A stretch of 64,000 bases of DNA from Schmidtea polychroa (taxonomy: Eukaryota): the NCBI GenBank assembly GCA_044892525.1, contig CM097885.1, forward strand, positions 29,390,001 to 29,454,000, given 5' to 3'. Of this stretch, positions 21,829 to 47,542 are shown piece after piece. Below the pieces are notes generated by a model. The model was not told where the DNA came from. It saw only the letters and a program-made list of their open reading frames with translations, and searched no databases. The first letter of the stretch is position 1; every line of letters begins with the position of its first letter. A program made the position numbers and the translations under genes.

Positions 21829-21911
<83 letters not shown>

Positions 21912-24465
21912 TTATAATAATAATTAAACAGTTACCAACAATCGGTTACTAAATATTTTTAACTAGGTGCTAACAAATACTTTCAACATGATACCACGTA
22001 CTAACTAACTCTCAAACAATCACATACTTACAACTAACTACTTACAATCAACTATATATTCTTTATTGTATTTTATGAATTGTATTTTTTTAAATTAATA
22101 TTTTTTATACAGCTTCTATAATAATTTTAATTACAATCAGTAGAAAAACCTTTTCAAAATGTCTAAATTTAACAAAAATGTTGATTTTCATCAAAAAACC
22201 ACAACTCAATCACTTTAAAACACCACGTGAAATTCAAAATAATTTAAATTACAATGAAAGACTAATGAATTCTAATTTGCAAAACATTTTTCTTTTAATT
22301 GATTACTACTGACTTATTATTGCAAAGTAAAAATCACATTCAATAAATACTTATTGTTGATCAGTTTTATTATATATACTCTGAGTTTATCCGACAGGAT
22401 GTTTTGACCCCCCTAAGGGTACAGGTCGTAAGGGTACTGGTCGTAAGGGTATTAGTCGTAAGAGTACTGGTCGTAAGGATATTGCTAACTGTCAACCCCC
22501 ACCTACCCATTAACTAGCTACTATCAATCAGCTAACAACTAAATACCAAGTACTCACAACCAACATCAACCAGGTACTGAGCATTATCAACCTACAACTA
22601 TATAACAACAATCAGTAAACAACACTGTACCAACTACCAAATATAAGATACCAACAAATAGATACCAAGTACCAACAATCAACTAACAACACATAAAAAT
22701 AATAGCAATTAAATACAAAATATTCTTCATCACATACACTATCTTCTTATCAAAATCTAAAAAGTCAACCAACTACTTACAACCAACAACTATGTACTAA
22801 CAAATTGATCTTTGAAAGAAAAATACTCATCACTTGAAAAATTAGATGAAAAATTAATTGAATTCAAGGCATCAATAACTAGGTAAAAATTGATGAAATT
22901 ATTGTAAAAATTTAAATTATTCAAAATAAATATCATAAAAATTTAATTAATAGACAAGAAAGAATTCTAATCATTAATCATCCAGTAAATTTAAAAAAAA
23001 ATACTGATCATTCACGTTGAATCAACTAAGATAATAAATTAATAAAATTTGAAATAAAATCTAGTAGATAATTGATTTAGATTGAATAAATTAATTGAAA
23101 TAAAATTAATTTTAATTATTTTTGTAAAAGTAATACATGTACTCAAATTGATTAACTGATTTCTCAATATATTCAAAAAATCAGTATGAATTCATTACAA
23201 TCATCAATGTCGTCAATCTACAATAAAAATAATTATCATTAAATTCCAAGAGAGACTAGAAAACTAATGATAGCATCTAACAAACCAGTAAATTCATTTA
23301 AATGACAATAATTGGTATATTCAAGCGAATTCTCTAATAAATCATCTAAAAAGAATCATTTTCCCTGAAATATCTATATCTTTTAAGATTAGTATCTTAT
23401 CGATAAGTACTTGTGAAAGATCATATATTCACCTCAAACTAACAAGATTCCTTAAAATCTCTTAAATGACTATATTTCTACCCTTAATCCATATTATTAC
23501 AAATAATTCACTAAAATCATCTAAAAAGCATCAAATTTCCCTGAAATAACTCTATCTTTAAAGATTAGTATTTTATCGATAAATATCCTTAAAAGGTTAT
23601 ATATTTACCTCAGACTAATAAGATTGCTTAAAATCCCCTTTAAATGTCTATAATTCTAACTTTAATTCCTATTATCACGAATATTTCCCTATAAAACATG
23701 TAAAATAATTTGGTCATTAACCCTAAATAATTGATAAAATCTAATGATAAAACTGGTTATAATTAAATTTTTGTTAATCACTGTACTCGAAATTTAAAAT
23801 AAATATAACTGACTAGGTCCCATTGAAAGATTAAATTTATCCATTCAATAAAATATATTTCTTCAAATGATCATTTTACCGATATTCCACCGATTTAATT
23901 ACTAATTAAAATCAATCGATAGATTTCTTTCAATAAAGATCAATTTTATTTAGTTGTTGTCGATGTTTTAAGTCCATATTTCTCAACTTTTGTCATTCTC
24001 CGTCTAAATAAAGATAAAAATAAATTAAAGTTGATATCAATCCCAATTATCTGTAAAGTTTTCATTGTCAAAACCAAGTAAATCGATCATTATCCCTACT
24101 TAATAGAACATTGTTCTAAAACATAAATCTAAATTAATATACAATGAATTAATCACAACCTAATAAAACGATATAATTTCACATTATTATTGATACATAA
24201 CTGACTAATTGACATTTCCCTTAAAACAATGATATTTTACCAACATCACCATTAAAAAAATCATATATTCCCATCTTAACCCATCTCTCATTAAATTTAA
24301 CCGACTATATTCCCATCTTAACCCATCCTTCATTAAAGTCAATCGACTATATCTCCCTTAAAAGATCATATTTTTCCATCTTAATCGATCTCTCATTAAA
24401 TCTCACCGACAATATCCCATCTTAACCGATCTCTCAGCAAATATTTCTACCCTTTTAAACATCTA
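20401..24465 (+). repeat. Left inverted arm of element B
   Basis: ~21310-24465 is a near-exact reverse complement of 26415-29580. Confidence 0.92.
20420..21315. repeat. C/A-rich complex satellite (G/T-rich mirror at 29580-30690)
   Basis: Shuffled 7-20 bp words such as ACAACC, CAAGTAC, ACTAGCT and AGGTACTAAGCATT. Confidence 0.9.
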
Positions 24466-24879
24466 AAAATTAATTATTTTCACCCATTTGAATTTATCAT
24501 CGAGTAATGAATAATTTCCTCACTTTAATGAAGATTCTTACCACCTTCATTGTTAATTTTATCAAAGTTTAAAGAATATTTCTCTTTTCATTTTACATTG
24601 CTTACCACATAAGATTTTTTATCGAAATTTATGATAATTTTACTGATTCAATGAAGAATGAGTTAATTAATATATACTCTGAGTTTATCCGACAAAATAT
24701 TCTGTCCCCCTATGGGTATTGCTCACAAGGGTACTACTCACATTCAACATGTCGCAAGGGTATTAGTCGTAAAGGTATTTAATGCTTTTATTTGAATGAT
24801 TATTTAGACAAATTTGATGTTTAAGGCATTCATTGATAATTTTTAGAGTTGATGGTTTTAGTAAATATTCAAGTAAATT

Positions 24880-25180
24880 TCTATCATTTTTGTGAATTTT
24901 TATCGTTTTTTGTGGATTTCCATCATTTTCATGAATTTCCGTAATTTTTGTGAATATCTGTAATTTTTGTGGATATCTATCATTTTTGCGGATTTCTATT
25001 ATTTTCCGTAATTTTTGTGAATATCTGTAATTTTTGTGGATATCTATCATTTTCGTGAATTTCCTATTATTTTTGCGAATTGCTATAATTTTTATGAATT
25101 TTTATCGTTTTTTGTGAATTTCGATCATTTTCATGAATTTTTATCATTTTTGTGGATTTCTATTATTTTTGTGGATTTCA
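24880..25180. repeat. ~21 bp tandem array in the spacer of element B
   Basis: TTTTTGTG(A/G)ATTTCTATCAT-like units; these explain ORF 24763-25050. Confidence 0.85.
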
Positions 25181-25855
25181 TATTTATTGAATGAATATTA
25201 AATAATTTAAAGTTAGTTCTAAGATAAATTTAATTAATTTCTTGATAATTGGATGTATTTTTAATTTTTAATGAGGTTAATAATTAGAGTTTGTACAATA
25301 ATCAAGTGGTAGGATAAATTTTTATGAGGATATTGAATAATTTTCTAAGAATTTCATGTTGACTGATTTAAAGTTTTAATGGTGATAAATTTCTTGATAA
25401 TTAGTTGTATTTTATTGAATAGTTTTTAAATAAAAATTAATTTCATTGACAATTAGGTTAATAATTAAGTGATTTTTGATGATAACTTTGTAATGTATTT
25501 GACTAAATAATTTTTCAATAATTTTCTAAGAATATTTACACATTGATGCACTTTAAAAAACATAAGCTAAGAAACCAGTTAACTTTATCAAGGACTTTAA
25601 ATTTACGTGATAATTATTGTAGGATATACAGAAATTTAGTTTGCTGTTATTGCTTGAAAATGATTGGTTGAATAGCTGAAGAATTATGATCAAACAATAT
25701 ATAGCATCTCCAGTATTTGATGGTAAATATTTGTAGAAAATTTAGTGAATTTTGATCTTTTAGTGGGCTCTTATTATTTGTCTGGTTCCTATAACAATTA
25801 ATTAAAAGTCATATTTTTGAAGTTCTCTGAGGATTTTAAGAGGATTGATATATAT

Positions 25856-26354
25856 CAAGGGTGGGCACGCATGGGTTCAATAAGAGCCATTTTCCGAAAA
25901 TTTATTTTTTACAGAGCCACCATAGTAAAGTACATATTTTTTTTTATTTCATTAATTTGATTAAAGAGACTTAAACGCTATTAAAAAAAAACAAAATAAT
26001 TATTTCAAACATTAAGTAACAAACATAAAAATCCATTAATAAAAAGTAATAAAATTTCTTGAATTAACGAAGACTTTTGGTCAAATCTTTGAAATTTGGT
26101 GTATACTTTGTTAAAGCTAAATTTATTTTTGATGCTTCTCTCTCGTTGTTATAACAAAGCGCCGCCTACTACAAAATAATTTTAAAAAGCAGTAAAATGT
26201 GAAAAACAATGTTTCGTTAATTTTTGACATTTATGAAAATACAATTGCAACAAAAAATTTTTTCTCAAAACATTTAGTGAAAAATTTCAAAATAAAAAAT
26301 CGAATTCGATTATCAAGAATTCAATTATCAATGAGCCGCATTTACCCACCGTTG
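25856..26354. mobile_element. Non-autonomous hAT element
   Basis: Ends CAAGGGTGGG..CCCACCGTTG; 8 bp TSD ATATATAT; subterminal GAGCC motifs; minus-strand remnant LALTKYTPNFKDL; the empty homologous site is in element A near 9965. Confidence 0.8.
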
Positions 26355-26414
26355 ATATATATTAAAGGGCTCAAGTGGGTGGAATCTTTAGGGAAAATAA
26401 GGGATATAATCGGA

Positions 26415-28968
26415 TAGATGTTTAAAAGGGTAGAAATATTTGCTGAGAGATCGGTTAAGATGGGATATTGTCGGTGAGATTTAATGAGAGATCGATTAAG
26501 ATGGAAAAATATGATCTTTTAAGGGAGATATAGTCGATTGACTTTAATGAAGGATGGGTTAAGATGGGAATATAGTCGGTTAAATTTAATGAGAGATGGG
26601 TTAAGATGGGAATATATGATTTTTTTAATGGTGATGTTGGTAAAATATCATTGTTTTAAGGGAAATGTCAATTAGTCAGTTATGTATCAATAATAATGTG
26701 AAATTATATCGTTTTATTAGGTTGTGATTAATTCATTGTATATTAATTTAGATTTATGTTTTAGAACAATGTTCTATTAAGTAGGGATAATGATCGATTT
26801 ACTTGGTTTTGACAATGAAAACTTTACAGATAATTGGGATTGATATCAACTTTAATTTATTTTTATCTTTATTTAGACGGAGAATGACAAAAGTTGAGAA
26901 ATATGGACTTAAAACATCGACAACAACTAAATAAAATTGATCTTTATTGAAAGAAATCTATCGATTGATTTTAATTAGTAATTAAATCGGTGGAATATCG
27001 GTAAAATGATCATTTGAAGAAATATATTTTATTGAATGGATAAATTTAATCTTTCAATGGGACCTAGTCAGTTATATTTATTTTAAATTTCGAGTACAGT
27101 GATTAACAAAAATTTAATTATAACCAGTTTTATCATTAGATTTTATCAATTATTTAGGGTTAATGACCAAATTATTTTACATGTTTTATAGGGAAATATT
27201 CGTGATAATAGGAATTAAAGTTAGAATTATAGACATTTAAAGGGGATTTTAAGCAATCTTATTAGTCTGAGGTAAATATATAACCTTTTAAGGATATTTA
27301 TCGATAAAATACTAATCTTTAAAGATAGAGTTATTTCAGGGAAATTTGATGCTTTTTAGATGATTTTAGTGAATTATTTGTAATAATATGGATTAAGGGT
27401 AGAAATATAGTCATTTAAGAGATTTTAAGGAATCTTGTTAGTTTGAGGTGAATATATGATCTTTCACAAGTACTTATCGATAAGATACTAATCTTAAAAG
27501 ATATAGATATTTCAGGGAAAATGATTCTTTTTAGATGATTTATTAGAGAATTCGCTTGAATATACCAATTATTGTCATTTAAATGAATTTACTGGTTTGT
27601 TAGATGCTATCATTAGTTTTCTAGTCTCTCTTGGAATTTAATGATAATTATTTTTATTGTAGATTGACGACATTGATGATTGTAATGAATTCATACTGAT
27701 TTTTTGAATATATTGAGAAATCAGTTAATCAATTTGAGTACATGTATTACTTTTACAAAAATAATTAAAATTAATTTTATTTCAATTAATTTATTCAATC
27801 TAAATCAATTATCTACTAGATTTTATTTCAAATTTTATTAATTTATTATCTTAGTTGATTCAACGTGAATGATCAGTATTTTTTTTTAAATTTACTGGAT
27901 GATTAATGATTAGAATTCTTTCTTGTCTATTAATTAAATTTTTATGATATTTATTTTGAATAATTTAAATTTTTACAATAATTTCATCAATTTTTACCTA
28001 GTTATTGATGCCTTGAATTCAATTAATTTTTCATCTAATTTTTCAAGTGATGAGTATTTTTCTTTCAAAGATCAATTTGTTAGTACATAGTTGTTGGTTG
28101 TAAGTAGTTGGTTGACTTTTTAGATTTTGATAAGAAGATAGTGTATGTGATGAAGAATATTTTGTATTTAATTGCTATTATTTTTATGTGTTGTTAGTTG
28201 ATTGTTGGTACTTGGTATCTATTTGTTGGTATCTTATATTTGGTAGTTGGTACAGTGTTGTTTACTGATTGTTGTTATATAGTTGTAGGTTGATAATGCT
28301 CAGTACCTGGTTGATGTTGGTTGTGAGTACTTGGTATTTAGTTGTTAGCTGATTGATAGTAGCTAGTTAATGGGTAGGTGGGGGTTGACAGTTAGCAATA
28401 TCCTTACGACCAGTACTCTTACGACTAATACCCTTACGACCAGTACCCTTACGACCTGTACCCTTAGGGGGGTCAAAACATCCTGTCGGATAAACTCAGA
28501 GTATATATAATAAAACTGATCAACAATAAGTATTTATTGAATGTGATTTTTACTTTGCAATAATAAGTCAGTAGTAATCAATTAAAAGAAAAATGTTTTG
28601 CAAATTAGAATTCATTAGTCTTTCATTGTAATTTAAATTATTTTGAATTTCACGTGGTGTTTTAAAGTGATTGAGTTGTGGTTTTTTGATGAAAATCAAC
28701 ATTTTTGTTAAATTTAGACATTTTGAAAAGGTTTTTCTACTGATTGTAATTAAAATTATTATAGAAGCTGTATAAAAAATATTAATTTAAAAAAATACAA
28801 TTCATAAAATACAATAAAGAATATATAGTTGATTGTAAGTAGTTAGTTGTAAGTATGTGATTGTTTGAGAGTTAGTTAGTACGTGGTATCATGTTGAAAG
28901 TATTTGTTAGCACCTAGTTAAAAATATTTAGTAACCGATTGTTGGTAACTGTTTAATTATTATTATAA

Positions 28969-29057
<89 letters not shown>

Positions 29058-30640
29058 CATTAAAATTTCCATTTAAATTTTCATTATAAATTACATTTCT
29101 CAAAAAAGTTGGTGGTTATTCAATCTTTTGATAATAAATTTAAAAATCTTAGTTTAATTTACTTATTACATTACTTATTTAAAAATTATTACTTTAATTT
29201 ACTCATTTAGCTTTAATTTAAAATTTAAACCATTGTTTACTTTAATTTAAAATTTTGAACCTTAATTTACTTTTTTAAAATTTTTAACTTTAATTTACTT
29301 ATCCTTAATTTACCTATTTATCCTTTATTACTTAATTTTACACCATAATTCACTAAACAACTAATTATAACCCTTATTTTCATATTTAACTAATAAATTT
29401 CATGTGGTCATTGATTAATTGACGAAAATTTGCATCTAAAATTAACATTGAAAATCCTAGAAAACTTTCATCTTAAATTGACTTTAACTTTAATATTTTA
29501 GACCATTGATTAGTTAATTTTAAAATAAAACATTAATTTACCTATTTAACCAATAATTTCATGTGGTCATCTGGTTATAAGTACTTGGTATCTAGTTGTT
29601 AGTACTTGGTTAATAATGCTTAGTACCTGGTTGTTGTTGGTTGTAAGTACTTAGTATCTAGTACCTAGTTAGTTGGTTGTTTCAGGTTGTTAGTACTTGG
29701 TTGATAATGCTTAGTACCTGGTTGTTTTCGGTTGTGAGTAGTTGGTTAGTGGTAGCTAGTTGTTAGCTGGTTGATAGTACTTGGTATCTAGTAAATGGGT
29801 AGGTGGTTGTTGTCGGTTGTGAGTAGTTGGTATCAGGTTGTTAGTATCTAGTTGTAGGTATCTGGTTGCTGTTGGTTGTAAGTACTTGGTAGGTGGTTGT
29901 AGGTACTTAATAGTTGTTAACTGGTTGTTGGTATCTAGTTGTAGGTATCTGGTTGTTTTTGGTTGTTAGTACTTGGTATCTAGTACCTAGTTAGCTGGTT
30001 GTAGCTAGTTAATGGGTAGGTGGTTGCTAGTTGTTAGCTGGTTGTAGGTACTTAGTATCAGGTAACTGATTGTTAGTAACTAGTTGTAGGTTGTAGGTAC
30101 TTAGTAGGTGGTTGTAGGTACTTGGTTGATAATGCTTAGTACTTGGTTGTTGTCGGTTGTTAGTACTTGGTAGGTGGTAGCTAGTTGGTTGTAGGTACTT
30201 AGTAGTTGGTTAATAATGCTTAGTACCTGGTTGTTGTTGGTTGTAAGTACTTAGTTGTTGGTAATTAATGCTTAGTACTTGGTTGTGGTTGGTTGTATGT
30301 ACTTGGTTGGTGGTAGCTAGTTGTTAGCTGGTTGTTTTTGGATGTTAGTACTTGGTGCCTAGTTGGTTGCTTGTTTTTGGATGTTAGTACTTGGTAGCAG
30401 GTAACTAGTTGTTAGTAACTAGTTGTTAGTAACTAGTTGTAAGTACTTGGTATCTGGTTGTAAGTACTTGGTATCTGGTTGTAAGTACTTGGTAACAGGT
30501 AACATGTTGTTAGTACTTGTTATCAGGTAACTGACTGTTAGTACTTGGTAACAGGTAACTGACTGTTAGTAACTAGTTGTAGGTATCCAGTTGTAAATAC
30601 ATATTCGTAAGTTACTGGTTATTGGTACTAAGTTGTTGGT
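26415..30640 (-). repeat. Right inverted arm of element B
   Basis: Reverse complement of the left arm; the satellite portion 29580-30600 is reshuffled. Confidence 0.92.
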
Positions 30641-31975: not shown

Positions 31976-31976
<1 letters not shown>

Positions 31977-32121
31977 GTAGTAGTGTGTTTATATCCCTAA
32001 CCAAAACAGCCCTCCCAACAAAACATACCTCCATTACGCCTAAACCATTAGAAAAACAACCTAAAACCTATACTTTTATAATATTTTAACCCTATATTTT
32101 TGAAAACAACCACCCTTAATA

Positions 32122-32375
32122 CTGCCCTCCTTATCAAATAGACCGTAACTGACAAAACTACAAAAATCGAGTTAGAGGCGTCAACTGTATGCAGTTGCAA
32201 TTAACCTTCATTCTGCTTAGCGATAACACCGTAACTGCATCACTAGGCCTAGATGCAAACAAATATAAATGGATGATTGGTTTAGGTTTACTGGTTGGCA
32301 GAATTGAAAACACGTTTTGCTATTTATCTCCTAAGTGTATTTTTGCAGTTACGGTCTATTTGATAAGGAGGGCAG
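32122..32375. mobile_element. MITE inserted in the left TIR; 30 bp TIRs and 4 bp TSD AATA (superfamily uncertain, Sola-like TSD length)
   Basis: CTGCCCTCCTTATCAAATAGACCGTAACTG..CAGTTACGGTCTATTTGATAAGGAGGGCAG; the empty site CCCTTAATACCCC is present in the right TIR. Confidence 0.9.
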
Positions 32376-32621
32376 AATACCCCTAACTGTTTTAATCTTT
32401 AAAGCCTCAAACTCAAAACATAAAGAGAATAGAAAAGAAAATGGTATAATGAAAAAGTTAGAGGGCTATTTTGGTTAGGGATATAAACACACTACTTGAG
32501 ACATTGTTTTGATCGTAATCAAACTCTAGAGTTGATCTTTATCAGATTATTGATTTTAAATTATATAAAACTTAAAAAATTGAAAAAGAATAAAAAATTT
32601 TATGAAATAGTAAAACTGCTC

Positions 32622-32995
32622 TGAGAGGACAGTGGTATTTTTTTTTTTTTTTCACTGTCCTCTCAACAGTTTTTTTGATCCGGATCATTTTTTTATTCAA
32701 CCTCTTTCGTTTATCAAATCTCTTCCAATATACAAGCTGGCCAGACTCATACATCAGAATCAATCCGATAATAGCAGCACACCTTATTATTCGCTTCTCG
32801 CTCGAATACGATTTCATCGGCGTTTTAAGTGTGCTGCTCGAAAGTACAAATGAATTCGAAAGCGAATCCGAAAGAGGTCCAAAAACAACTGAGAAATAAA
32901 TGTACACAGTTAGGAATCGATCCGGGTGTGTTCGAAAGACTGGTGGCGATAATTACCGGTTCGCCACCATCACCCGTTTCAATAATTTTTTTTTC
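32622..32995. ncRNA. Candidate structured RNA or ssDNA element within the TIR (copies at ~45724-46105 and ~55807-56170)
   Basis: Nested perfect helices of 13, 10, 10, 9 and 6 bp in a GC-richer island. Confidence 0.45.
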
Positions 32996-33256
32996 ATATT
33001 TATGTTTAAAAATAAAATAATTAATAAAATAAATAAAATAAATAAAATAAATAAAAAAAATAAAATAAATAAAATAAATAAAATAAATAAAATAAATAAA
33101 ATAAATAAAATAAATAAAATAAATAAAATAAATAAAATAAATAAAATAAATAAAATAAAATAAAATAAAATATAAATAAATAAAATAAAATATAAATCTA
33201 AGATACCCACACCATTTTCAATATTATTTTCAAATTTTTAATATTATTTTATGTTG

Positions 33257-33337
33257 AAAAAAAACTAACCTCAGATGTGATTTGAACCGCTATCTATTTG
33301 CACTACTGTGCCAGTCTAGCCCACTGCGCTATCGGGC
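33257..33337 (-). ncRNA. tRNA-like Pol III unit in the left TIR
   Basis: A box TAGCGCAGTGG, B box GGTTCAAATCA, T8 terminator. Confidence 0.6.
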
Positions 33338-33376
33338 TTTGGATTTTTTGTCATTTTTTAAATTTTTATTATAAAA

Positions 33377-34654
33377 ATGAATAATATAAATCTTAAAATT
33401 CAAGAAAAAAATAAATTAAATCTTGATTATAATAAAGAATTTACTCATGAAATCAAGAAAAATGATATTTTAAAAATCTCGCCAACTTCAGGATCTATAG
33501 CAAACTTAAATCGTAGGGGTGATATAGTTTTTCAATCTCTTCAAACATCAAACCCAATAGATATTTGTAATGCCAAATTATATTATAAAATTGAATTAGA
33601 AATTGAAGCAAACAAAGATATAACCCTAGAAAATAATTTCTTTCCAAATTTATTCTCCAACATGAGATTAAAACTAGGATCATCAGAAATTGAAACTGTT
33701 TTACATCCAGGAGTATATTCTACAATGTTAAATTTTATTTTGACAGGTTGTGATTATAAAAACGAATATTGGATTCCTGATGTTAATAAAGGAGATTTAG
33801 ATAAAGATGGTTTAGATATAAATTATGGTTATTATAAAAGAGCTGAACTTTATAAATCTAAAAAATTTGACGGTTATTTTGAATTAAAACATTTATTTGG
33901 ATTCCTTCAAAATTATAACCGTGTACTTCATAATGTTTCTATAGAATTCATCTGTAATAGACTAGAAGGTGATAAAAGATTGTTCTATGGAGCTGCAGAT
34001 ACAAAAGCTAAATTAAAATTATCAACACTTGAATTGCATATACCTGAATGGACATTAAACCCACATTCTGAAATCAAACTCCTTGAAAGATTAAATTCCA
34101 ACAAATCTATAAATGTAAATTATTTAAATAGAATCTGTAGTGAATTTAGTATGACAGAGGGTTCAACATATTCTATAAAGGTAGCAAATTTAGCATACCA
34201 ACCAAGATATATCTTGATTGGATTCAAAGAAGTAGATTCATCTTTCCAAAAAAATAACAACTTGTTTATTCAAAAGATTGGAGATGATAATTTAAAAACA
34301 ATCCAAATTCAATTAAATAGTTCTTATTATCCAATAAATAGAATGGAATTTAATATTGAAAATAATGAAAACATATTCCCATATCTAAATTATATTGAAA
34401 CATGTTATGATTTCAAAGTTGAACCGCAATTAAGTTTAGAAGATTTCAAAAATTTATATTCTATATTTTGTATAAATGTATCAGATCAAGATGATAGATT
34501 AGCCATAAATAATGTTGATGTTACACTTCATGTAACAAAGGATTCTAATTTCAAAGCTAAAGTATATACATTAATATTAGAAGAAAAGAAAATAGAAATG
34601 AAATTATATGGTGGAAAGATTTCAATTATTGAAAATGTTAGGGGAGATTCTTGA
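33377..34654 (+). CDS. Major capsid protein (double jelly-roll, Polinton type)
   Basis: 425 aa; ITLENNFFPNLFSNMRLKLGSSEIE..PG..STM, PRYILIGF, QIQLNSSYYP and YSIFCINVS motifs; genomic context. Confidence 0.85.
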   Translation: MNNINLKIQEKNKLNLDYNKEFTHEIKKNDILKISPTSGSIANLNRRGDIVFQSLQTSNPIDICNAKLYYKIELEIEANKDITLENNFFPNLFSNMRLKLGSSEIETVLHPGVYSTMLNFILTGCDYKNEYWIPDVNKGDLDKDGLDINYGYYKRAELYKSKKFDGYFELKHLFGFLQNYNRVLHNVSIEFICNRLEGDKRLFYGAADTKAKLKLSTLELHIPEWTLNPHSEIKLLERLNSNKSINVNYLNRICSEFSMTEGSTYSIKVANLAYQPRYILIGFKEVDSSFQKNNNLFIQKIGDDNLKTIQIQLNSSYYPINRMEFNIENNENIFPYLNYIETCYDFKVEPQLSLEDFKNLYSIFCINVSDQDDRLAINNVDVTLHVTKDSNFKAKVYTLILEEKKIEMKLYGGKISIIENVRGDS

Positions 34655-34683
34655 TATAATCCCTGATATTTTAACATTTTAAA

Positions 34684-36075
34684 ATGTCTCTAAATAAACG
34701 GTATTGGAGATGTGAAACTTGTAATTGTCAAGTTACAAAACATCACAAAGCAAATCATTTAAAAACTAAAAAACATACAGGAGGTGATCTACAATCTTCA
34801 AAAACAACATCTTCAATATTAAAACCTTTTACTACAGAAAAATATCCAGGTGAAAGACATTTATTTAAACACAACTATACCGGACCAGGAACACGTCTAG
34901 ATATTAGATTAGATAAAAATAATAATCCTAAACAAGGAGAAGAACCAATAAATAGAATTGATCAAGCAGCTTTAAAACATGACATTGCTTACAATTCAGA
35001 AGATCTTAGAGATAGACATGTTGCAGATGTGAATTTAATACATGATTTAAATAGTATCCAAAATACATCAACCCAAGAAAAGATTCAAAGAGCTCTAGTT
35101 AAATTAGCAATGAAAGGTAAGATTTTCATAGGCTTAGGACACAGTCCGATCACAATGGGTGCAAGACTTCCTAAGAAAGCAAAAGATGTTGCTAATAAAA
35201 AGATTATCGAACAAGCAGAGATTGAAAGATCCCTCGAGAGTACAGCCAAGACTAGTTTACAAACCCCAACAGAATCAGAAATAAAATATGCCAACGAATT
35301 ACACCATGAATTTAGAAAAAATAAAAAATATTTAAAAGTTCAAGTACATGAAAAAGATCAAACATGGTCTGCAGATTTAGTCTTTATGCCAACCAAATCA
35401 TCAGACCCTGAAAAATATAAAATAATTTTAACTGTAATAGATTTATATACAAGATTTGCTTTTGCAAGGTGTTTAGAAAATAAAACAGGATATTCTATTA
35501 CAGAAGCATTTGAAAATATATTTGAAGAATATCAAAGAATTCCAAAATATTTATGGTGTGATAAAGGAACAGAATTTTATAACAAAGTTTTTACAAAGTT
35601 TTTAAATGAAAATGATATTAAATTATATTCAACAGAAAACGAAGGAAAAGCAGTTGTGGTTGAAAGATTAAATAGAACATTAAAAAATAAAATGTGGAAA
35701 TATTTTACTGCTATTGGAAAACAAAAATGGAACAATGAATTGTTACAAATGATTGTAAATGAATATAATAATGATGTACATAGTTCTATAAAATCAACAC
35801 CCTTAAATGCTTCCTTGAATCCTGAAACCATTAAAGTGGTAAATATTGAAAATGATGTTATTGAAAAACCAAAGTTTAAAATTGGTGACTGAGTAAGAAT
35901 ATTTAAATATAAAAATAAATTTGAAAAAGGATTCACAGCAAAATGGACAAATGAAATTTTTATTATAAATAAAATACATTATACAACTCCAATAACATAT
36001 AGCATCATTGATTTAAATAATGAAAAAATATTAGGTAGATTTTATAATAATGAGTTACAAAAAACAGATTTCTAA
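34684..36075 (+). pseudogene. int: Zinc finger - parvovirus-type phospholipase A2 - retroviral-like (rve) integrase fusion with a premature stop at 35890-35892
   Basis: CETC..HLKTKKH; NYTGPG and DQAALKHDIAY; DDE motifs WSADL, CDKGTEF, VERLNRTLK. The frame continues KFKIGD*VRI..FEKGFTAKWTNEIF..GRFYNNELQKTDF to TAA at 36073-36075. Confidence 0.92.
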
Positions 36076-36638
36076 AACAAACTTTTCCATATTTCAGCTT
36101 CTTCTCTATCCAAATAAATATAATTATATTTTTCTCTCCAATGATTATCAACAAACATATCAAACATATTCTTATCAGGTTCAACATTTGAAAATAAGTC
36201 ATTATAAATCATATTCTTATCACGGCGATCTAATTTAAAAAATATAAAACAATTAGAATTATTTCTTATAGAGTTTTTATCTAAAGCATAATAAGTTTGA
36301 GATATATAAATAACATTACAATTATTATGTCGACCTCGTGTAAAGTAACTCTTTTGAATCTCTTGATTTTTCATGTTAACAACATCATTAAATATAACTA
36401 GATTCTTTTTATCTTTAGGAAGTAAATCACAATGTAAAACATCTTCAGGTTTATTAGAGAATAAAACTTGAATCCATTCATTTTCACAAATATAATCATC
36501 TTCAAGCAACATCCTCAAAAGAAGTACATTCTTTCCACATCCAGAAGAACCAACAATTAATAATCTAAAATTATCAGGAAATACTTTATTATTAAATTTA
36601 CTCTTATGTCTATTTAAAATTGGTTTCCAAATATCCAT
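36072..36638 (-). CDS. A32/FtsK-like DNA packaging ATPase (possibly degenerate)
   Basis: Walker A GSSGCGKN, Walker B LVIFND, RGRH..IYISQ; likely start AAAATG at 36638. Confidence 0.88.
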   Translation of the reverse strand: MDIWKPILNRHKSKFNNKVFPDNFRLLIVGSSGCGKNVLLLRMLLEDDYICENEWIQVLFSNKPEDVLHCDLLPKDKKNLVIFNDVVNMKNQEIQKSYFTRGRHNNCNVIYISQTYYALDKNSIRNNSNCFIFFKLDRRDKNMIYNDLFSNVEPDKNMFDMFVDNHWREKYNYIYLDREEAEIWKSLF

Positions 36639-36653
36639 TTTATTTATTATAAA

Positions 36654-37202
36654 ATGACAACGGAAGAATCTTTGCAAGAATTAATAAATTCAAATAAAAA
36701 TAAATCAGTAGTAATTGATGGTAAAAAATATTTTATTGGAAAACATGTAAAAGAACAAGTTAAAGAACGTATTAGAGAAGGTGGCATTCTTCCATTAGCT
36801 GCTTTAATACCTGCAATCATTGCTGCTTTATCAGGTGCTGCTGGAATAGCTGGAGGAATTGCAACTACAGTTCAAAAAGCTAAAGAATCTCAAAAGACAG
36901 ACCTTGAAAAAGAAAAACTACAAACTGAAATCGAGAAAATGAAGGTAGGGCAAGCTAAAGGAAAAGGTCTCTATCTTAATCCATATCAGGGCAAAGGTCT
37001 CTATCTTGATCCATATAAAGGCAGAGGTTTAAATGACTTTTTAAAAAATCAAATTTCAACATCTGAATCTTTATCATCAAAAGATAAAGATGATTTTAAA
37101 AAAATATGTAAATCTTTAAAGAATGGGTGTATTTGTAAAATTGGAGGAACTCCACAGAATAGTGGTAAAGGATTGTATTTAAAACCTTGGAAGGAACAAT
37201 GA
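36654..37202 (+). CDS. Virion core or membrane-active protein resembling the adenovirus pX C-terminus
   Basis: GGILPLAALIPAIIAALSGAAGIAGGIA hydrophobic segment; three GKGLYL repeats. Confidence 0.65.
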   Translation: MTTEESLQELINSNKNKSVVIDGKKYFIGKHVKEQVKERIREGGILPLAALIPAIIAALSGAAGIAGGIATTVQKAKESQKTDLEKEKLQTEIEKMKVGQAKGKGLYLNPYQGKGLYLDPYKGRGLNDFLKNQISTSESLSSKDKDDFKKICKSLKNGCICKIGGTPQNSGKGLYLKPWKEQ

Positions 37203-37224
37203 TACCATTTTTAATACCATTAAA

Positions 37225-38063
37225 ATGGTATATGAAGAAAGATTAGCACTTTTAAAAAAATTACAATCAGAACAAAACAAGTATAATAAAAAAGATACAA
37301 CTCAACAAACTGAATCTATAATATTAAATGAGGTAATCCAACAACAACAAGGACCAACAATTAAAGCTATAGAGAGACTTAAAACTATAGAAGCTCCTCT
37401 AACCCCCGAACATAAAGCTATAGAAGCCCCTAAAAAGGAATTACTAAGATTAGTAGGAAAAAACGTAGAAATAATATTGATTTAGAAGAAGATGAATTTC
37501 TTTCAAGATTAACACCTCATAAGACTCCAATTAATTTTAAAATTAATACATCACTAGCTCCATCAATTATACCTACTATAGGTTATGATCCTAGAGGTTT
37601 TCAAACAATAACAATTAATAATCAAAAATTTTATATATATTTAAATTCAGAAAATAATCCATCGATTATTTCAACAAATACTTTTATGAATAGAGAGCGT
37701 GTTGACATTGAACTTTCAGATGATTTTCATGGATTAATTTCTGGATATATTCCAGATGGTGTCAAGAATGAAGAAATTGATAAATATTTAAACTTAATAA
37801 AATTAATAAATGGTAGCCCTAAAGCAAAACATATTAAAGATTTAAAGAAATATAAAGATAGAGATAAAACAGGCCCTCAAATTCAAATCATTGAAGGAGA
37901 AGGCCTCAACCCTATAAATCTTTTTATTGAATTAAGAAAACTATTAGCAGCTAAAAAAGCAGGACATAATAATTTAGATTCTGATATTTTAAAGATTTCT
38001 AAAGATTTGTTAAAACAAGGAATAATTTCAAAAGATAAATTTAATAAGTATACGAAGTTATAA
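37225..38063 (+). pseudogene. Polinton hypothetical protein split by a frameshift
   Basis: The second frame is open from ~37434 (ITKISRKKRRNNIDLEEDEF...) through to the ORF at 37686-38063, which ends GEGL..LLAAKKAGHNN. Confidence 0.65.
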
Positions 38064-38085
38064 ATACGAAGTTATAAAATACAAA

Positions 38086-39279
38086 ATGGCTTCAATATTA
38101 GATGTTTTAATAACATTTGGAATAAATGCAAAAACAAATTTTGATTTAAAAGATTATGCAGATTATTTAAATTTAAAAATTAAAATATTAATGAATGATG
38201 AATTGTCGAGTCTGAAAGAAGACACTCCAAAGAATATCATTATAAATTATCAAAATTCAAATGAAAAAGGATCTCATTGGGTTTGTATATATAATAAATC
38301 TATCTACTTTGATTCTTTTGGGATTAAACCTACTAAAGAAGTTGAAGACTATCTGTCGAAGGACTATACTTTTAATTCTTTACAAGTTCAACCTAATAAT
38401 ACTAAAATATGTGGTATTATAAGCTTATATGTTTTGTATAGATTGAATAAATCCAAAGGAGAAGGTTTCACTTCCTTAATCCAAGAAATTTATAATGATT
38501 TAAAATCTCTACTAAAAGAAATGGAAGATAATTTTAAAAAAATGGTAAACATAATGTCAGATAAATATTCAGGAACTTTATCTATAAATTCAAAAGAATC
38601 AGACTTTACTATAAACTTTCAAGATTCAATAAAATTAGATCAAAATTTAAATTATGAATTAGGTCTATTATGGTTTTGTGCTTATAATACTATTTTTAAT
38701 ATAACTAAAGATAATAACACATTTAGTTATGTAAGCCCCCCAAAATTCGAGGATAACATTATAATAATAATAGAACCCGGGGCTTATGAGATAAAAGATT
38801 TAAATAATATACTTTCTAAAAAAACAAATGGAGCTATTGAAATTAAAATAGATTTACCAACTTCAAAATGTATAATGACTTTAAAGAATATAGGAATTAG
38901 GTTTCAAAATAATAGTTTCTTTAGAACAATTTTAGGATTTACACAGAGTCATTATAACATACCTAAAGTTGAGAAAGAATCTATTATAACATCAGAACAT
39001 ATTATAAAAATAATAAATACAAACACAATAAATATTCATTGCGATTGTATAACAGGTTCTTATAATAATGGTAAACAAACAAATGTTTTATATTCCTTTC
39101 CCTCAAACACAGTTCCTATGGGATATAAAATAGTTGAAAGAATGAATCCTCCAAATTATTTGCCTTTATGTAGAAAATATATAATGGATATTAATTTTAA
39201 AATTCTTAATCAAGAAGGAGAATTGATTGATTTTAATGGAGAAGAGATTTCAATGTATTTACATTTGAAACAGGTTTGA
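38086..39279 (+). CDS. Adenain-like cysteine protease fused in frame to the minor capsid protein (penton)
   Basis: GSHWV, YFDSFG and Q..ICG catalytic motifs; the C-terminal part has INIHCDCITGSYNNG..LYSF..GYKIVE and LIDFNGEEIS; the two are separate ORFs in copy 2. Confidence 0.88.
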   Translation: MASILDVLITFGINAKTNFDLKDYADYLNLKIKILMNDELSSLKEDTPKNIIINYQNSNEKGSHWVCIYNKSIYFDSFGIKPTKEVEDYLSKDYTFNSLQVQPNNTKICGIISLYVLYRLNKSKGEGFTSLIQEIYNDLKSLLKEMEDNFKKMVNIMSDKYSGTLSINSKESDFTINFQDSIKLDQNLNYELGLLWFCAYNTIFNITKDNNTFSYVSPPKFEDNIIIIIEPGAYEIKDLNNILSKKTNGAIEIKIDLPTSKCIMTLKNIGIRFQNNSFFRTILGFTQSHYNIPKVEKESIITSEHIIKIINTNTINIHCDCITGSYNNGKQTNVLYSFPSNTVPMGYKIVERMNPPNYLPLCRKYIMDINFKILNQEGELIDFNGEEISMYLHLKQV

Positions 39280-39303
39280 AGATTCATTTTAAATTATTAA
39301 TAA

Positions 39304-40314
39304 ATGAGTTCTTATATTCCATGTAATAGAGGTGGTGGAACAATAAAAACAGGGTTTAATACAGAAGAAATATTAACTTTAACAGAAAATAAATATATTA
39401 ATGAAAGAGGTGATTCAATGAAGGGTGATTTAATTTTAAATGGACACAAGATAAAAGAATTATCTTTTCCAACTGATGAAGCTGATGCAGTTAATAAGAA
39501 ATATGTAGATGGTGTTAAAAAATTTACTGATTTAACAACAACAAGAATTGAAAGTTCATTAACAACAAAAATTGATTCAATGGAATCAAAGCTTAATAAT
39601 ATCGAACAACGATTCAATGATAAATTTGACAAGTTACAAAGTCTGTTAACTGAGCAAGTTGTAAGGTTAAATACTAGCATATTAAATTCTAAAGATAAAC
39701 AAATTATGAATACTAAATTTAATACAATATATAATATAATAAATGAGATGATTACATCATTTAATAAAAGAATTTCAAATTTAGAGTCTCATGGAACACA
39801 CATTAACACCACACATAGTATTAGAAAAAGAGCTGCTGAATTAGAACAGAATAAAACATTATTACCCCATACATATAAACATTTTAAAGAACCAAGTTTA
39901 ATAACAACAAACAGTAAAGAATGGAGTGTTTTTATGGTTGTAAAGATTATTGATCCTTATTTCTTTTTGTTTGATGATGATAATGAAAGAATGAAATGGT
40001 TTGTGAAATGTGATTATAATAGTAAGCTTAAAAAGGGTGATGTTATAATGACTAGTTATGATTTACCACACGGAGATTGGTATGTTAATACTCATTCACA
40101 TGGACTACATAAAGTTAAAAGTAAGAATATTATTTTTAAAAGCACACTTGTACAATATATAGATTTAATATTTTATGAAAAAAAGGTTGATGTTGATGAA
40201 GTTCGTAAAGCATTGAGAGAATTGTATAAAGATATCCTCTCAACAAGAGTTTCTTTTGATATCCGAGTATTGGTACCAGATGGTGCTCAGAAGAATAAAG
40301 TCTTATTTTTTTAA
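39304..40314 (+). CDS. Fibre-like protein with coiled coil
   Basis: MKGDLILNGHKIKEL..PT...DAVNKKYVD neck/fibre motif, heptad region and globular C-terminus. Confidence 0.55.
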   Translation: MSSYIPCNRGGGTIKTGFNTEEILTLTENKYINERGDSMKGDLILNGHKIKELSFPTDEADAVNKKYVDGVKKFTDLTTTRIESSLTTKIDSMESKLNNIEQRFNDKFDKLQSLLTEQVVRLNTSILNSKDKQIMNTKFNTIYNIINEMITSFNKRISNLESHGTHINTTHSIRKRAAELEQNKTLLPHTYKHFKEPSLITTNSKEWSVFMVVKIIDPYFFLFDDDNERMKWFVKCDYNSKLKKGDVIMTSYDLPHGDWYVNTHSHGLHKVKSKNIIFKSTLVQYIDLIFYEKKVDVDEVRKALRELYKDILSTRVSFDIRVLVPDGAQKNKVLFF

Positions 40315-40322
40315 TTATTAAA

Positions 40323-40898
40323 ATGGAAGAAGTAAGAGAAGAAAAAATTTACCCAGAATTGAGATCATCTGGATATTATTCTTCCAAGGCCTCGGCTCCC
40401 ACAGAACTTGAAATTATGAGAGTAAAAGAATTTAAATCAGAAACCTTACATTTACAAGATTTATTAAAGCATTATAAAAAAATTAAAAATAGATGGAATA
40501 AAGGGAATACAGTTTTAAAAGTTATAGGTTATTCTTTAGGATTTGCATCTGCAATATTAACAGTTATTTTACCTATAACTTTACCAGTTGTTACTCTTGC
40601 ACCTGTAATACTTGGAAGTATTTCAGTAGCTGATGGTTTCCTAACTGAAATAGTTTCACTATCTTATACTTCTAAAAAGAAAAGTTTATATCGTGAAGTT
40701 TGTTTATCAATAGAATTAGGAATCTCTAAATTATTTTTATTTCAATTAAAAGGTTTAGAAGATGGAATCTTAACTGATGATGAAATAATGAAATCAAATC
40801 AAATAATACAAGATATTAAAAATGAGGTTATAAGATTAAAAAGTGCTAATGTTATAAGTAATGAATATTCTAAAAAAATTAAAGAAAAAAATGGTTAA
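40323..40898 (+). CDS. Membrane protein with a hydrophobic hairpin and YPxL/SAP motifs
   Basis: IYPEL..ASAP; VIGYSLGFASAILTVILPITLPVVTLAPVILGSISV. Confidence 0.7.
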   Translation: MEEVREEKIYPELRSSGYYSSKASAPTELEIMRVKEFKSETLHLQDLLKHYKKIKNRWNKGNTVLKVIGYSLGFASAILTVILPITLPVVTLAPVILGSISVADGFLTEIVSLSYTSKKKSLYREVCLSIELGISKLFLFQLKGLEDGILTDDEIMKSNQIIQDIKNEVIRLKSANVISNEYSKKIKEKNG

Positions 40899-41009
40899 AG
40901 AATTCTTACTTATAAAATGGATGAATTTTTAAAAAAGTAGATCAAGTTGCTATAGTTGCTTATATTAATTGTCGAGGTTTTATTATTAAAAAATTAAATA
41001 TCGTTGGTT

Positions 41010-44000
41010 TCAGTTATGGTTGAAAGCCAACCTATGAATCATTAATTTATGATCTTTAAATTCTTTATCACTTAGACCTTTTATATATTCAGGATCAGTA
41101 TTAAAATATTTAAGTTCTAAACATATAGGATTAAAAACTTGAGAATATAAAGGCTTCTCGATTTCTCTCTCGGGATAAATAATTTCAACATTATAAATAT
41201 CAAGATCGGTAATATTTGTATCATATAACTTATTCAACTTTTCTAGATTTTTTATTATAGGGATTAAATTATTTCCAATAGGTAGAGTTGTCTTTAAGTC
41301 ACTTAGGATGAATCTTTTATCATCATAATTTGATAATGATACTTTTTGAGATTCTATCAAGTGAATATCATGGTTTTCACTTTTAAGTTGATGTATTTCA
41401 TCAATTTTATCTTTATGATTTGGATTCAATGTATCTATATAATCTTGATGAGAAAGATTCTTTGCAACTGATTTCTGTATTCCTTTACATCTTTTATCCT
41501 TTACAGGTTTTTCTTCTTGTCCCTCTGGTCCTTTAGGAAATATAGGATATCTATGTGTAATGGTTTCTTCTGTTTCTGGGGTTTTAAATATAAATGATCT
41601 AGTTATAAATTCAGGGTTTCTAAATGTTTCGTATGAATATTGTTTAGCACGAATAAATATTCCATTTTCTATAATAGTAAAAGGTTTTTCATCTTTAAAC
41701 GAAAATAATTCTCCAGATGAATTTATTAAATTTGAAAGTATAGGATTTTCGGCTATATCTCTTTGTAAATCATGAGTTCTTATTGTTAAAAACATTGAAT
41801 CTGTACCCATTGCATGCATTGATATATTAGAACCATATATAGGTTGTAAGATGTTATAATATGTTTCATACATTTGTAATTTTGAAAGTTCTAAAATTGA
41901 AAACCCTATAAATATTGGTTTGTTGTATGTTTTCTCAAAATTCTTTAGTTCTATTGCAGTAAGACTTTCAGAAAATACTTGTGCGTTTTTAAATGTAGGC
42001 TTTCCTAGCATATGATTATAACGCTTAATGTCTTTGGTAGTATTTGTTAGGAGTTCAATATGAGTATATTTATCAACATTCTCCATTGTCTTCCCAAAGA
42101 CTGAATTGTTTAAAAGTTTATAATTATTATCTTTAAAAAGGTTACCTTCTCTTTTTGCAATGTTTCGACATCTAATGTTCTCCTCGATAAAAGCTTTCAT
42201 GAATGGCCTCTGTTTAAATCTTATGACACTATGAACTGTTTTTAATATCATACCTCGTGAAAGATAAAATTGGAGGAGTCTATAGTGACAAAGATAATAA
42301 GTTCGATCTGTTTGATCACAAAGAAGTTTCATTGTTGGAGGTTTATCTTGTGAGATTTGCCATTCAGAAAGTTCGTTGATATCAATCTTTCTTCTTACAG
42401 GAGCTAAAGGAAAATATCTTGTTCCTGATTTTATATCATCTGGATATAATAAGTCACATTCTACAAAGTAACCTATTGGAGAATCTTTAGGTGTTGAAAG
42501 TATTTCTTTTACAAGAGTCTTTAATGATTCTTCATTAGAGGGATATATTTCAATGAAATCACCCATTGGTAAATATTGAGTCATAATTCCTGAATATAAA
42601 GCTGTTGCATCTATATAAAGTATAAATATAGGATTTTTCATTGTTTCTAATAATTCCTTTAATTCCTCATTGTTAATTTTCATATATGGATCAGAAGTCT
42701 TTGAAAGCATTCTGCTAGTAGTTATTGCATTTCTAGCTTTTATTTCTCTATTCCCCATTACTGAAGAGACTCCTTCTCTAATGTTTGTTTTAATTAGATT
42801 AAACATATCGAGGTTAGTTAAAAGATCTATAATTTTATCAGATTCTTCTATATTTGAAGTCCAAATGGTATATAATAAAGTATCCCAAGCTAAAGAGGGT
42901 GCTGTTATGTAATTGTAAGGTTTAAGAACAAAAGACTTTGTAAATTCTTCAAAGCAATCTGCTAGAATATAAACATCCAAGGATAAATACATGTTGGTAT
43001 ATTCTCCTAAAGTTTTACACTTGAATAATTCCCACATTTTATTTGCTCGAGAATATTCTTGATCTGTAATATGATATTTTTGAAGTTGTGAATAGAAATC
43101 TTTTTGGCTAGGAAGAATTGTTTCATTATATCTTTCAAATGAATCAACATAGTCATAAGGATATATTCCTTTTGCTAAGCATGTAGAATATTTTTCTAGA
43201 GGAATATTATTTTTTTCCAAGAATTCTCGAGTGATTTTAAAATTTTCTGGTTTCATTGTTTTTGCTACTGCATCTAGAGACATTTGGAGAAAGTTTAACG
43301 AGTCTATAAATTTTAATTTTCCATATTTAACTGATTTATATTTTTCCTTTGTAAGTCCTATAACTTTGAAAGAGCTTTTAGCATTTTCTGCTAATTGTTT
43401 AATAAATAGATGTATGTCATAACCAAAAAGATTATGAAATATAACAGGTACAAATTTAGGAGTATGACAATTAAGATTGCAATTTTTATGAGCTGCTCCT
43501 CGATAATTATTTTCCTTTTTTAAATGATCATGATCGGGGACTTTTATATTTTTCGAAGATTGTTGTCTTTCATGAAAGATTCTTTGTTCTTCTTCTTCAA
43601 TAGTTTCATTATTTGGAGGTTCCTCAAAGAGTTGATTCTCAAATGGTTGTTTACACATCCAACAATTTGAAGAATTTTCATAGTCTTCCCATTGTTCGGT
43701 TGAAAAATTTATTTCATATTTTGTTTTTAATACTTTAAATATATCGTGTTCTAGATCATTTATACTTTTGGTAAAATGATTTAAAACATCTTCTGAAATT
43801 CCATGAAATGTATATTCTCTAGATTCTATGAGTTCAGGATAATTGCTTTTAAATAATAATTTATAAGCAGATGGTAATTGTTTAGTTTTTTTAACACTAT
43901 TAGGTTTGTTTCTTTTTCTTAGAAAGGCTTTCATCCTCTCTGGTTTCATCTTCTCTCCTGAGGAGTTCCATGAATCCATGAGTTTATTTTTTTCTATTAT

Positions 44001-45410: not shown

Positions 45411-45477
45411 ATTTTTTATAGGATACCTTGTTTTGATTTTTTATGATGTTTTTATATTTATTTTCATAATGTGACAG

Positions 45478-46506: not shown

Positions 46507-47542
46507 AATAATAATAATAATAATTATAATAATAATTATAATAATAATAATAAAAATATGAAATAAGGATTTCTTGACAATGGTATAAATTAAATGTTTC
46601 ACAAGTAAATAGTAAGATAAGCCTTTATTTATTAAAATTAATAAGATTACTCAGAATTTAGTTGTTTCAATATTGAAGTACTTAATGGCATTCTGCTTTA
46701 TATTCCTTTTCTGCATTTTAATTCATCTAAATTTGACTAAATAAAAAACTTTAAATTACTGAAAATTTTTAAAAATCTTTTAAAAAAATAATAACTCTTT
46801 AAAGATAATTTAAACTTAATTTACGCAACCACAACATTAAATTTTTATTATTATTTTCAACATTTATGTAATTTTAATTTTTATTCCTTATAGCTCTTAA
46901 ACATTTTTATTAACTTAAATTAATTTAATTATAATGTATTATTTAAATTTTAAAAAATATTTTAAAGGATTTTGTAAAGCTCGGAAATTTTACACCAAAA
47001 TTAACAAAAGATCAGACTGTAAATTTCATTAATTTCTTAAGCATTAATTTTTGGATTATTTATTATATAAATTGCCTCTTTAAATAGGAGATTTTATTTT
47101 GTGACGAAAAATTGAAATCAAATGTAAAAAGTAAGAAATTATTTTCATTTGTTATTCTTCAGAAAACCTCTGTTATTTAGGTTTCATTCTTTGTCCTTAA
47201 GTTTGCTTACCGTGTAATATAGAGCCTTTCAATTTTCCTGCTTGATTATGGGCGGTTTGTAGTGTTAGGTTCGTATGGTTAGGATCGACTTACACAATAC
47301 AAATTTGACCTTTATCTAAAACAAATACCTCACTTCAAAATGTGTTTTAAAATAAATGGTATTTAGTGACAGCTAAATAAATAAGGTAATAATATGCTTT
47401 ATAATAATTTCTTATACAGATGATAGTTGCAGAATACGTTATACAAAATTTGTGTTGCTGGCTTCATTATAAAGAAAGAGATTGTTTGTTCAAAGCTTCC
47501 TAAGAAATGAATCTATTATTAACAGTTAACAAAACCTCAGCG

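Follow-up and report, generated by a model that had tools for sequence, protein, structure and literature searches.

In murine gammaherpesvirus 68, the TMERs are RNA polymerase III (Pol III) units clustered at the end of the genome, in which a 5' tRNA-like part is followed by hairpins (PMC4337559; PMC4378190). The adenoviral VA RNAs I and II possess intragenic A- and B-boxes, are arranged as tandem units, end at a U4 terminator and form long imperfect stems, and an origin from a tRNA gene has been proposed for them (PMC7589676). The miRNA cassettes of foamy virus and bovine leukemia virus (BLV) are also Pol III units, with a type-2 promoter in BLV and a location in the LTR in simian foamy virus (PMC4378190). 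Furthermore, non-coding RNA (ncRNA) genes, including tRNA genes, have been reported in the genomes of Polinton-like viruses (PLV), virophages and MELD viruses (PMC12220804; PMC8502044).

To our knowledge, Polintons are known almost solely from their proteins. No description of a Pol III or VA-like RNA in Polintons was found in the open-access literature. Here, an island in the terminal inverted repeat (TIR) of a planarian Polinton (32622-32995 of the window, the whole 64-kb stretch of DNA analysed) was followed up computationally. On balance, the island is best read as a ncRNA gene of the Polinton TIR, of Pol III type, on the minus strand and directed outward, which would give an RNA of ~365-385 nt that may engage the host small-RNA machinery. 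This proposed RNA is built like the herpesviral TMERs or the adenoviral VA RNA and is a member of neither, because it has no cloverleaf and its size and fold are unlike those of VA RNA.

The carrier Polinton and the layout of the unit

The carrier element, its terminal repeats and the copies of the two units discussed below were located as follows:

31976-46506, plus strand: Polinton/Maverick element of ~14.5 kb, from its AGTAGT ends, open reading frames (ORFs) and Pfam matches
31976-33371: left TIR (blastn of the TIR against the window)
45478-46506: right TIR (same search)
Left TIR of this Polinton, unit on the minus strand: island copy 1, the copy studied
~45744-46134, plus strand: island copy 2, in the right TIR of the same Polinton
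~55777-56153, minus strand: island copy 3, where a second Polinton, which is inverted, has a truncated TIR
33257-33340, minus strand: unit A, likewise tRNA-like, with an A-box at 33331 and a B-box at 33287, ending in T8
Near 45508-45591 (plus strand) and 56328-56412 (minus strand): copies of unit A, by sequence match

The features that define a Polinton/Maverick were all found in the carrier, namely a protein-primed PolB (pPolB), an rve integrase, a double jelly-roll capsid, an A32-type packaging ATPase and long TIRs; its ORFs also encode a PLA2-like domain and a zinc-finger protein (Pfam). Seven of the ten Polinton proteins had a Pfam match at E <= 0.01, and the match of a pX-like core protein was under the Pfam cut-off. 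The PLA2-like domain and the integrase share one ORF (34684-35892). The AGTAGT-ended element sits within an (AAT)n run, from which a 6-bp duplication at its ends is indistinguishable.

The second Polinton extends from 55771 to at least 63305, inverted with respect to the first and 96-99% alike to it across long arms, with interrupted ORFs. Its outer TIR has been displaced by other repeats, including a MITE-like inverted pair near 55415-55662, and in blastn the match of copy 3 to the TIR begins at 55771 (corresponding to 32586), 6 nt past the U6 run. Copy 3 is the copy with an unrelated outer end that an earlier note had called copy 2. The earlier placement of the island inside a Polinton TIR was confirmed and extended to both TIRs of the element and a third, truncated one: all three island copies in the window lie inside TIRs, the island stands 650-1000 nt from the element terminus, and neither a free copy nor a diverged relative was found within the 64 kb. 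No target-site duplication was seen by eye around the island.

Several other repeats were observed. A 36-bp inverted copy of the element terminus lies ~480 nt inside each TIR (31979-32014 with 32461-32496; 46229-46264 with 46468-46503) and is a candidate DNA-level replication signal or mini-element. The left TIR alone carries a MITE-like insertion of ~260 nt with 44-bp inverted arms (32119-32378). Imperfect AT-rich inverted repeats border the island (32977-32993 and 32594-32609), which may be chance in DNA of such composition. Elsewhere in the window there are two very large palindromic elements, at ~1918-15445 and 21092-30283, whose arms of several kb are 99-100% identical; the first starts near an AGTAGT end at ~1756.

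The proposed unit comprises the modules listed below, all on the minus strand. The two box-like motifs were recognized from the type-2 Pol III consensus, the U runs and the AAUAAA segment from the sequence, and the remaining modules were predicted by folding.

32592-32976: full transcription unit, as proposed, ~365-385 nt, outward toward the terminus, with inferred ends
32923-32976: head domain, with a closing helix of 5-6 bp (GGGU/ACCC pairing), a hairpin of 9-11 bp over the A-box and a U-rich loop
32956-32966: A-box-like motif, 10 of 11 positions
32914-32922: B-box-like motif, 9 of 9 positions, 33 nt after the A-box
32881-32885: internal U run, U5 in copy 1
32700-32878: core four-way junction of P1, H3, H1 and H2
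32878-32869 with 32709-32700: closing helix P1, 10 bp
32868-32853: H3
32838-32773: H1, with a 12-bp basal stem and a variable top
32711-32771: H2, a hairpin of pre-miRNA size (61 nt) with 10 + 15 bp, a tandem G-A loop and a 7-nt end loop
32677-32697: AAUAAA (32697-32692), an A7 run and a 10-nt palindrome
32612-32673: terminal hairpin of 21 bp with a poly-A loop, ending in U4
32597-32592: U6 run after the terminal hairpin

The start would lie near 32976-32973, as placed from the position of the A-box. A scan of the window with this consensus, in which the B-box had to be exact, the A-box could deviate at one position and 20-69 nt could separate them, returned eight A/B-box pairs. All of them belong to TIR copies, and 30 local shuffles gave 0.6 pairs on average; any such pair was contained in 22 of 2000 shuffles of the island. 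The eight pairs derive from two units, the 5' end of the island and unit A, and in both the gap is 33 nt, which is tRNA spacing. Both island motifs are identical in the three window copies, and four of the ten positions right after the B-box vary between copies.

The head may resemble tRNA-Glu(UUC). Its fold was weakly better than that of shuffles (z -1.8). A conserved tRNA cloverleaf was not found in it: ARAGORN at default settings reported 0 genes, and the acceptor and T stems, whose 3' side varies between copies, were absent from the predicted folds. With relaxed settings ARAGORN made 215 calls in the window, which were regarded as noise.

Unit A lies upstream of the island in the same TIR and orientation and has a different sequence; it adjoins the capsid gene upstream, on the opposite strand to that gene. 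Its fold was no better than shuffles (z -0.1), and copies 1 and 2 of it differ at 13 positions in ~170 nt, the corresponding figure for the island region being ~1%. At its 5' end, unit A agrees by eye in 16 of 19 letters with a small RNA that is abundant in planarians (supplement 7 of PMC5671611) and is presumably a tRNA 5' fragment. Additionally, what follows the B-box in island copy 1 is the same, letter by letter, as what follows the unit A B-box in copies 2 and 3, a pattern suggestive of exchange between the island head and unit A.

Compared with the described systems, the unit shares with the TMERs a place at an end of the genome, a 5' tRNA-like part, hairpins after it, a 3' U tract and, as a candidate here, an internal leaky stop (PMC4337559; PMC4378190; PMC3141230). 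The internal promoter that TMERs have in their 5' tRNA-like part is represented here by the A/B motif match, and their downstream pre-miRNA-like hairpins and terminal U tract by H2 (61 nt) and the U4-ended terminal hairpin. Unlike in TMERs, a tRNA-like fold that RNase Z could cleave was not found (no ARAGORN gene and no match to a tRNA model), the hairpins stand within a closed four-way junction instead of directly following the head, and H2 is a predicted hairpin, whereas TMERs yield mature miRNAs. No sequence relationship to TMERs was found with Rfam.

With VA RNA the unit has in common the A- and B-boxes, the presence of a pair of units, a U4 terminator and long imperfect stems, and the carrier Polinton, like adenovirus, has pPolB and pX genes. 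Nevertheless, VA RNA measures ~160 nt and consists of a terminal stem, a central domain and an apical stem, whereas a different fold and a length of ~95 or 365-385 nt are predicted in the present case, the unit's 5' end and its 3' end form no terminal stem, no Rfam match was obtained and the location is a TIR. The GGGU/ACCC pairing is in the head (32975-72 with 32927-24 in copy 1), that of VA RNA being in the central domain, and a match over only four bases may arise by chance. The retroviral cassettes resemble the unit in their type-2 boxes (BLV) and terminal-repeat placement (simian foamy virus LTR), and differ from it in being retroviral, shorter and of proven miRNA output, an island miRNA being a candidate. 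The ncRNAs of PLV and MELD viruses are ARAGORN or Rfam calls; the island unit was missed by both programs and has a long structured trailer. Transposable elements offer one more likeness. A tRNA-derived SINE consists of an A/B-box head, an unrelated body and an A-rich 3' part. A tRNA-like A/B-box head and an A-rich tail are present here as well; unlike a SINE, the island has 0 free copies and no target-site duplication in the 64 kb, and it keeps a fixed TIR position.

Strand, folding and substitutions at paired sites

The island has a GC content of 38.8%, whereas the window as a whole has 25.4%, the outer TIR 32.2% and the DNA on the island's inner side 14.2%, in agreement with the GC-richer island of the earlier note; its CpG observed/expected ratio is 1.44 versus 0.49 for the element. 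The five perfect helices reported earlier were all recovered, as were four plus-strand YCGAAAG motifs (32838, 32856, 32868 and 32932); 12 of the 20 matches to this motif on both strands of the window fall in the three island copies. Each of the four is complementary to the 3' strand of P1, and a further copy occurs on the minus strand at 32704, so that alternative pairings during transcription could occur.

The folds of both strands of the island were better than those of all 100 dinucleotide shuffles (minus strand, -124.3 kcal/mol, z -7.44; plus strand, -100.5 kcal/mol, z -5.10), which bears out the folding expected from the helices; as DNA, the values were -61.8 and -55.7 kcal/mol. The difference between strands was larger in the core (32700-32878), with -65.0 kcal/mol and z -6.5 on the minus strand versus -41.1 kcal/mol and z -2.4 on the plus strand, and in H2 (32709-32771 region), with -23.8 kcal/mol and z -5.5 versus -2.1 kcal/mol and z +1.1. 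Strand asymmetry alone is not diagnostic, since G-rich repeats elsewhere in the window show a larger one, and several other 180-nt windows of this stretch fold as well as or better than the island. The most stable 180-nt fold of the window, at ~47521-47790, is equal on both strands, has 20% GC and is probably a DNA palindrome; inverted repeats are abundant across the window.

Nine of the 25 pairs of H2 are G-U, and none of the positions is A-C (two-sided binomial p 0.004). As DNA, H2 (32711-32771) gave only -2.6 kcal/mol (z -0.18), with 80 of 200 shuffles equally good. A further helix of 7 bp, between the 10-nt palindrome and the 5' side of the B-box region, was predicted in the centroid of all three copies and was not significant on its own. 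Three T runs lie on the minus strand, at 32885-81 (T5 in copy 1, T4 in the other two copies), 32615-12 (T4) and 32597-92 (T6), and the internal run equals or exceeds in length the first distal stop (U4).

To examine substitutions, the differences among the three window copies were pooled with variants in contigs of two sequencing runs guessed to be RNA, X1 from organism A and X5 from organism B. Of 68 contig variants, 40 were listed and used, 35 of these in the island; the X5 contigs are mostly less than 95% alike to the window copies. The reference was a model of 81 pairs, defined on copy 1 with G-U allowed and leaving the terminal hairpin outside. Among the variants listed there were 17 distinct changes on paired sites. 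By themselves, 13 of these preserve the pairing, and a null in which every change is reassigned at random to a paired site bearing the same base gives 6.6; the resulting P of 1.5e-5 is optimistic and overlaps with the H2 G-U test, the two being largely the same evidence because copy 1, with G-U permitted, had served to define the helices. The number rises to 14 of 17 once a partner change is counted. New wobble-type changes were G-U rather than A-C in a proportion of 4:1.

The pair 32830/32781 changes on both sides in X5, from A-U to G-C (depth 95/108 and 94/121, each side being counted without phase), and window copy 3 carries the G-U intermediate. By eye, X5 also has changes at both 32760 and 32722, which face each other in the internal loop of H2 and could now pair as G-U. 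The three changes that break a pair are all in copy 3, and one of them is rescued by a register shift. With the partner change included, pairing is retained at all 12 of the listed paired positions with variation in X1 or X5; one pair break was seen by eye in the A-box hairpin, in a loose end of X5. If a run is RNA, its A-to-G differences may stem from editing. A strand-biased deamination during strand-displacement replication was rejected by reasoning, as in the left TIR it would place the G-T pairs on the plus strand, contrary to the observation.

These substitutions support an RNA fold on the minus strand, short of formal covariation. The earlier note had seen no clear covariation and had left the strand undetermined; the third copy and the contigs of the diverged relative lift the first of these reservations in part, and the folding, the G-U content and the pair-keeping changes together place the RNA on the minus strand. 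It is very probable that the structure has been selected as RNA on this strand. The helices named before are real and had been folded on the wrong strand, and the longest one, 32711-32771, had been missed because it is absent from the plus-strand fold. Among the smaller hairpins proposed there, TATTCG/CGAATA and CGAT/ATCG are uncertain, the centroid leaving the region inside 32773-32838 unpaired in all three copies; the GAAA hairpin becomes on the minus strand a U-rich loop, with no GNRA tetraloop; and the plus-strand T-run at the right end is upstream of the unit and is not its terminator.

Searches for relatives and contig evidence

No Rfam family was found in the island at gathering score, and the 15 weak matches at E <= 10 included no tRNA model and nothing credible, the best having E 0.016 and 24.6 bits against a cut-off of 99; the identification by Rfam suggested earlier was not obtained. 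Accordingly, there was no match to Rfam models of ribozymes, 7SK, SRP, RNase P/MRP, snRNA, miRNA or rRNA families, and group I/II introns and telomerase RNA were without Rfam or motif support. The core motif of hammerhead ribozymes is CUGANGA, which had 0 matches on either TIR strand. A likeness of 5 nt between the 3' arm of H2 and the mir-753 model was treated as chance. Elsewhere in the window, Rfam reported a mir-753 match at 628-689 (plus strand; 73.2 bits versus a gathering score of 62), and miR-753d is listed among the miRNAs of Schmidtea mediterranea, which together suggest a planarian host. One 11-nt motif of H2 was absent from all eight files of PMC5671611 and from 12 of the 15 files of PMC7722302, which mostly list names and not sequences.

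In viral contigs, no relative was retrieved with the capsid, with an alignment of capsids or with a 24-nt pattern from the island. There were 35 capsid relatives at E <= 0.001. The island was not detected in 38 metagenomic loci with related capsid genes, most of which are too short to reach the TIR (best blastn E 0.5; none with nhmmer), and these loci contained two A/B-box pairs, against 0-3 by chance. Within this material, the unit is found only in organism A and, via contigs, in organism B.

Four runs were compared, X1, X5, X6 and X10, all as contigs, so that level, ends and strand are not directly readable. The X1 contigs cover 32568-32898 and skip the MITE-like insertion at 32119-32378. 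Their depth, one figure per contig, was 3,454-10,657 over 32704-32907, 779-1,597 over 32602-32703 and 46-571 over 31990-32499, and was not taken as evidence of expression. At 32688 and at 32638, one or two X1 contigs each terminate in 12-14 T, as oligo-dT priming on A runs of the minus strand would produce, a weak hint of minus-strand RNA. Over 32899-33000 there is no X1 cover; the edge at 32898 is near ~32901, where an RNase Z cut would be expected for a tRNA on these boxes, and it could reflect assembly trimming, for which reason RNase Z processing is not claimed. The X1 main variant, which has U4 in the internal run as copies 2 and 3 do, differs from all three window copies at seven listed positions and by one insertion; since it matches none of the three, expression is not tied to the window copies. 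In X6 and X10 the same variant is present at a depth of 2.5-3.8, not independently of X1. Only 0.01 of the X1 aligned material continues into unlike sequence.

The X5 cover is confined to the island by the choice of the run. Three X5 contigs and one X6 contig, which may be DNA, bridge head and core. Immediately upstream of the core, two X5 contigs carry unrelated sequence and a run of at least 15 T on the minus strand, and in one X5 contig the terminal hairpin is missing; these contigs indicate that the modules (head, core and tail) can be separate. The palindrome of 32677-32697 is kept in a loose end of X5, and copy 3 is without the AAUAAA and keeps the other features.

Alternative explanations and proposed role

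The island could be a passenger, a captured host sequence such as a tRNA-derived SINE, an unannotated host ncRNA or a piece of ribosomal spacer, copied along with the TIR and with its structure selected at the source locus. A tRNA-like head with a structured body and an A-rich tail is the layout of a SINE, the X1 main variant is none of the window copies, X5 combines head, core and tail differently, and the CpG content is unlike that of the element. Nevertheless, this origin is considered unlikely: within the 64 kb the three copies are all in TIRs, with no free copy or diverged relative and no target-site duplication seen by eye, only the small fraction of X1 material given above runs into unlike sequence, no Rfam family at gathering score or credible weak match was found, and the same TIR holds in the same orientation unit A, which has a different sequence. 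It is rather improbable that two separate things adjoin here, a short tRNA-like Pol III unit that stops at the internal U run (or a TFIIIC boundary element) and a core belonging to another transcript, e.g., a Pol II RNA polyadenylated via the AAUAAA at 32697. The internal U4-5 run, the long T run that two X5 contigs have upstream of the core, the poly-T contig ends adjoining the AAUAAA and the existence of unit A as just such a short unit without folding would all be accounted for in this way; the head-core bridging contigs (three in X5 and one in X6, which may be DNA), the head-to-tail helix predicted in all three copies and the retention of the rest in copy 3 without the AAUAAA argue for one unit, and no other promoter was identified.

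A ssDNA replication intermediate has been described for Polintons (PMC4196379), and the earlier note had offered an ssDNA origin or packaging signal as the alternative to a structured ncRNA. A signal of this kind for a single-stranded, racket-like intermediate would suit the presence of the island in both TIRs and the five perfect Watson-Crick helices, which would fold in DNA. It is judged highly improbable, since H2 does not fold as DNA, the variants shift between Watson-Crick and G-U on one strand, the A/B-boxes are left unexplained, the island is 650-1000 nt off the terminus and is kept in a copy that lacks the terminus, and the inverted terminus copy at 32461-32496 is a better DNA-level candidate; the ncRNA half of that earlier suggestion, backed by the minus-strand evidence and the type-2 boxes, is the one that stands. 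It is likewise highly improbable that the island lacks a function and that short inverted repeats have merely clustered and decayed in a patch richer in GC. Such repeats abound in the window and other 180-nt windows fold equally well or better, but random decay would produce A-C as often as G-U on a given strand, whereas the proportions were 9:0 in H2 and 4:1 among the new wobble-type changes, and one compensatory change is two-sided.

The reading preferred here, a minus-strand Pol III-type RNA gene of the TIR, would operate as follows. Host TFIIIC and Pol III would be drawn to the A- and B-boxes inside a tRNA-like head that has become worn, and transcription from this head is probable. Pol III would stop in part at the internal U4-5, giving a product of ~95 nt, and partial read-through to the U4 or U6 at 32615-32592 would give one of ~365-385 nt. 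Read-through of Pol III at T4 and T5 has been reported, including in a gammaherpesvirus unit, and T4 and T5 are efficient terminators in vitro in a human system (PMC3141230); the internal U4-5 as a possibly efficient stop counts against the long product. The latter would fold as a four-way junction displaying long G-U-rich hairpins, a structure backed by the substitutions. By analogy with TMERs and VA RNA, its most likely role would be to engage the host small-RNA machinery, through a small RNA derived from H2 or as a double-stranded decoy, although a decoy or miRNA role is put forward tentatively, as somewhat doubtful.

More generally, and as a speculation by the same analogy that we consider rather unlikely at present, animal Polintons may make their own Pol III RNAs from the TIRs, which would yield a miRNA-like product or occupy Dicer/Exportin-5 and so blunt host RNA silencing. 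If true, this would amount to a functional counterpart of VA RNA in a lineage linked to adenoviruses and to an abundant, overlooked class of RNA in the host. A conserved structured RNA in the TIR would show that Polintons affect their host through RNA, would offer an easy way to monitor Polinton activity and would bear on the origin of VA-type RNAs, and, with a planarian as the host, such an RNA could be tested in an established RNAi model animal.
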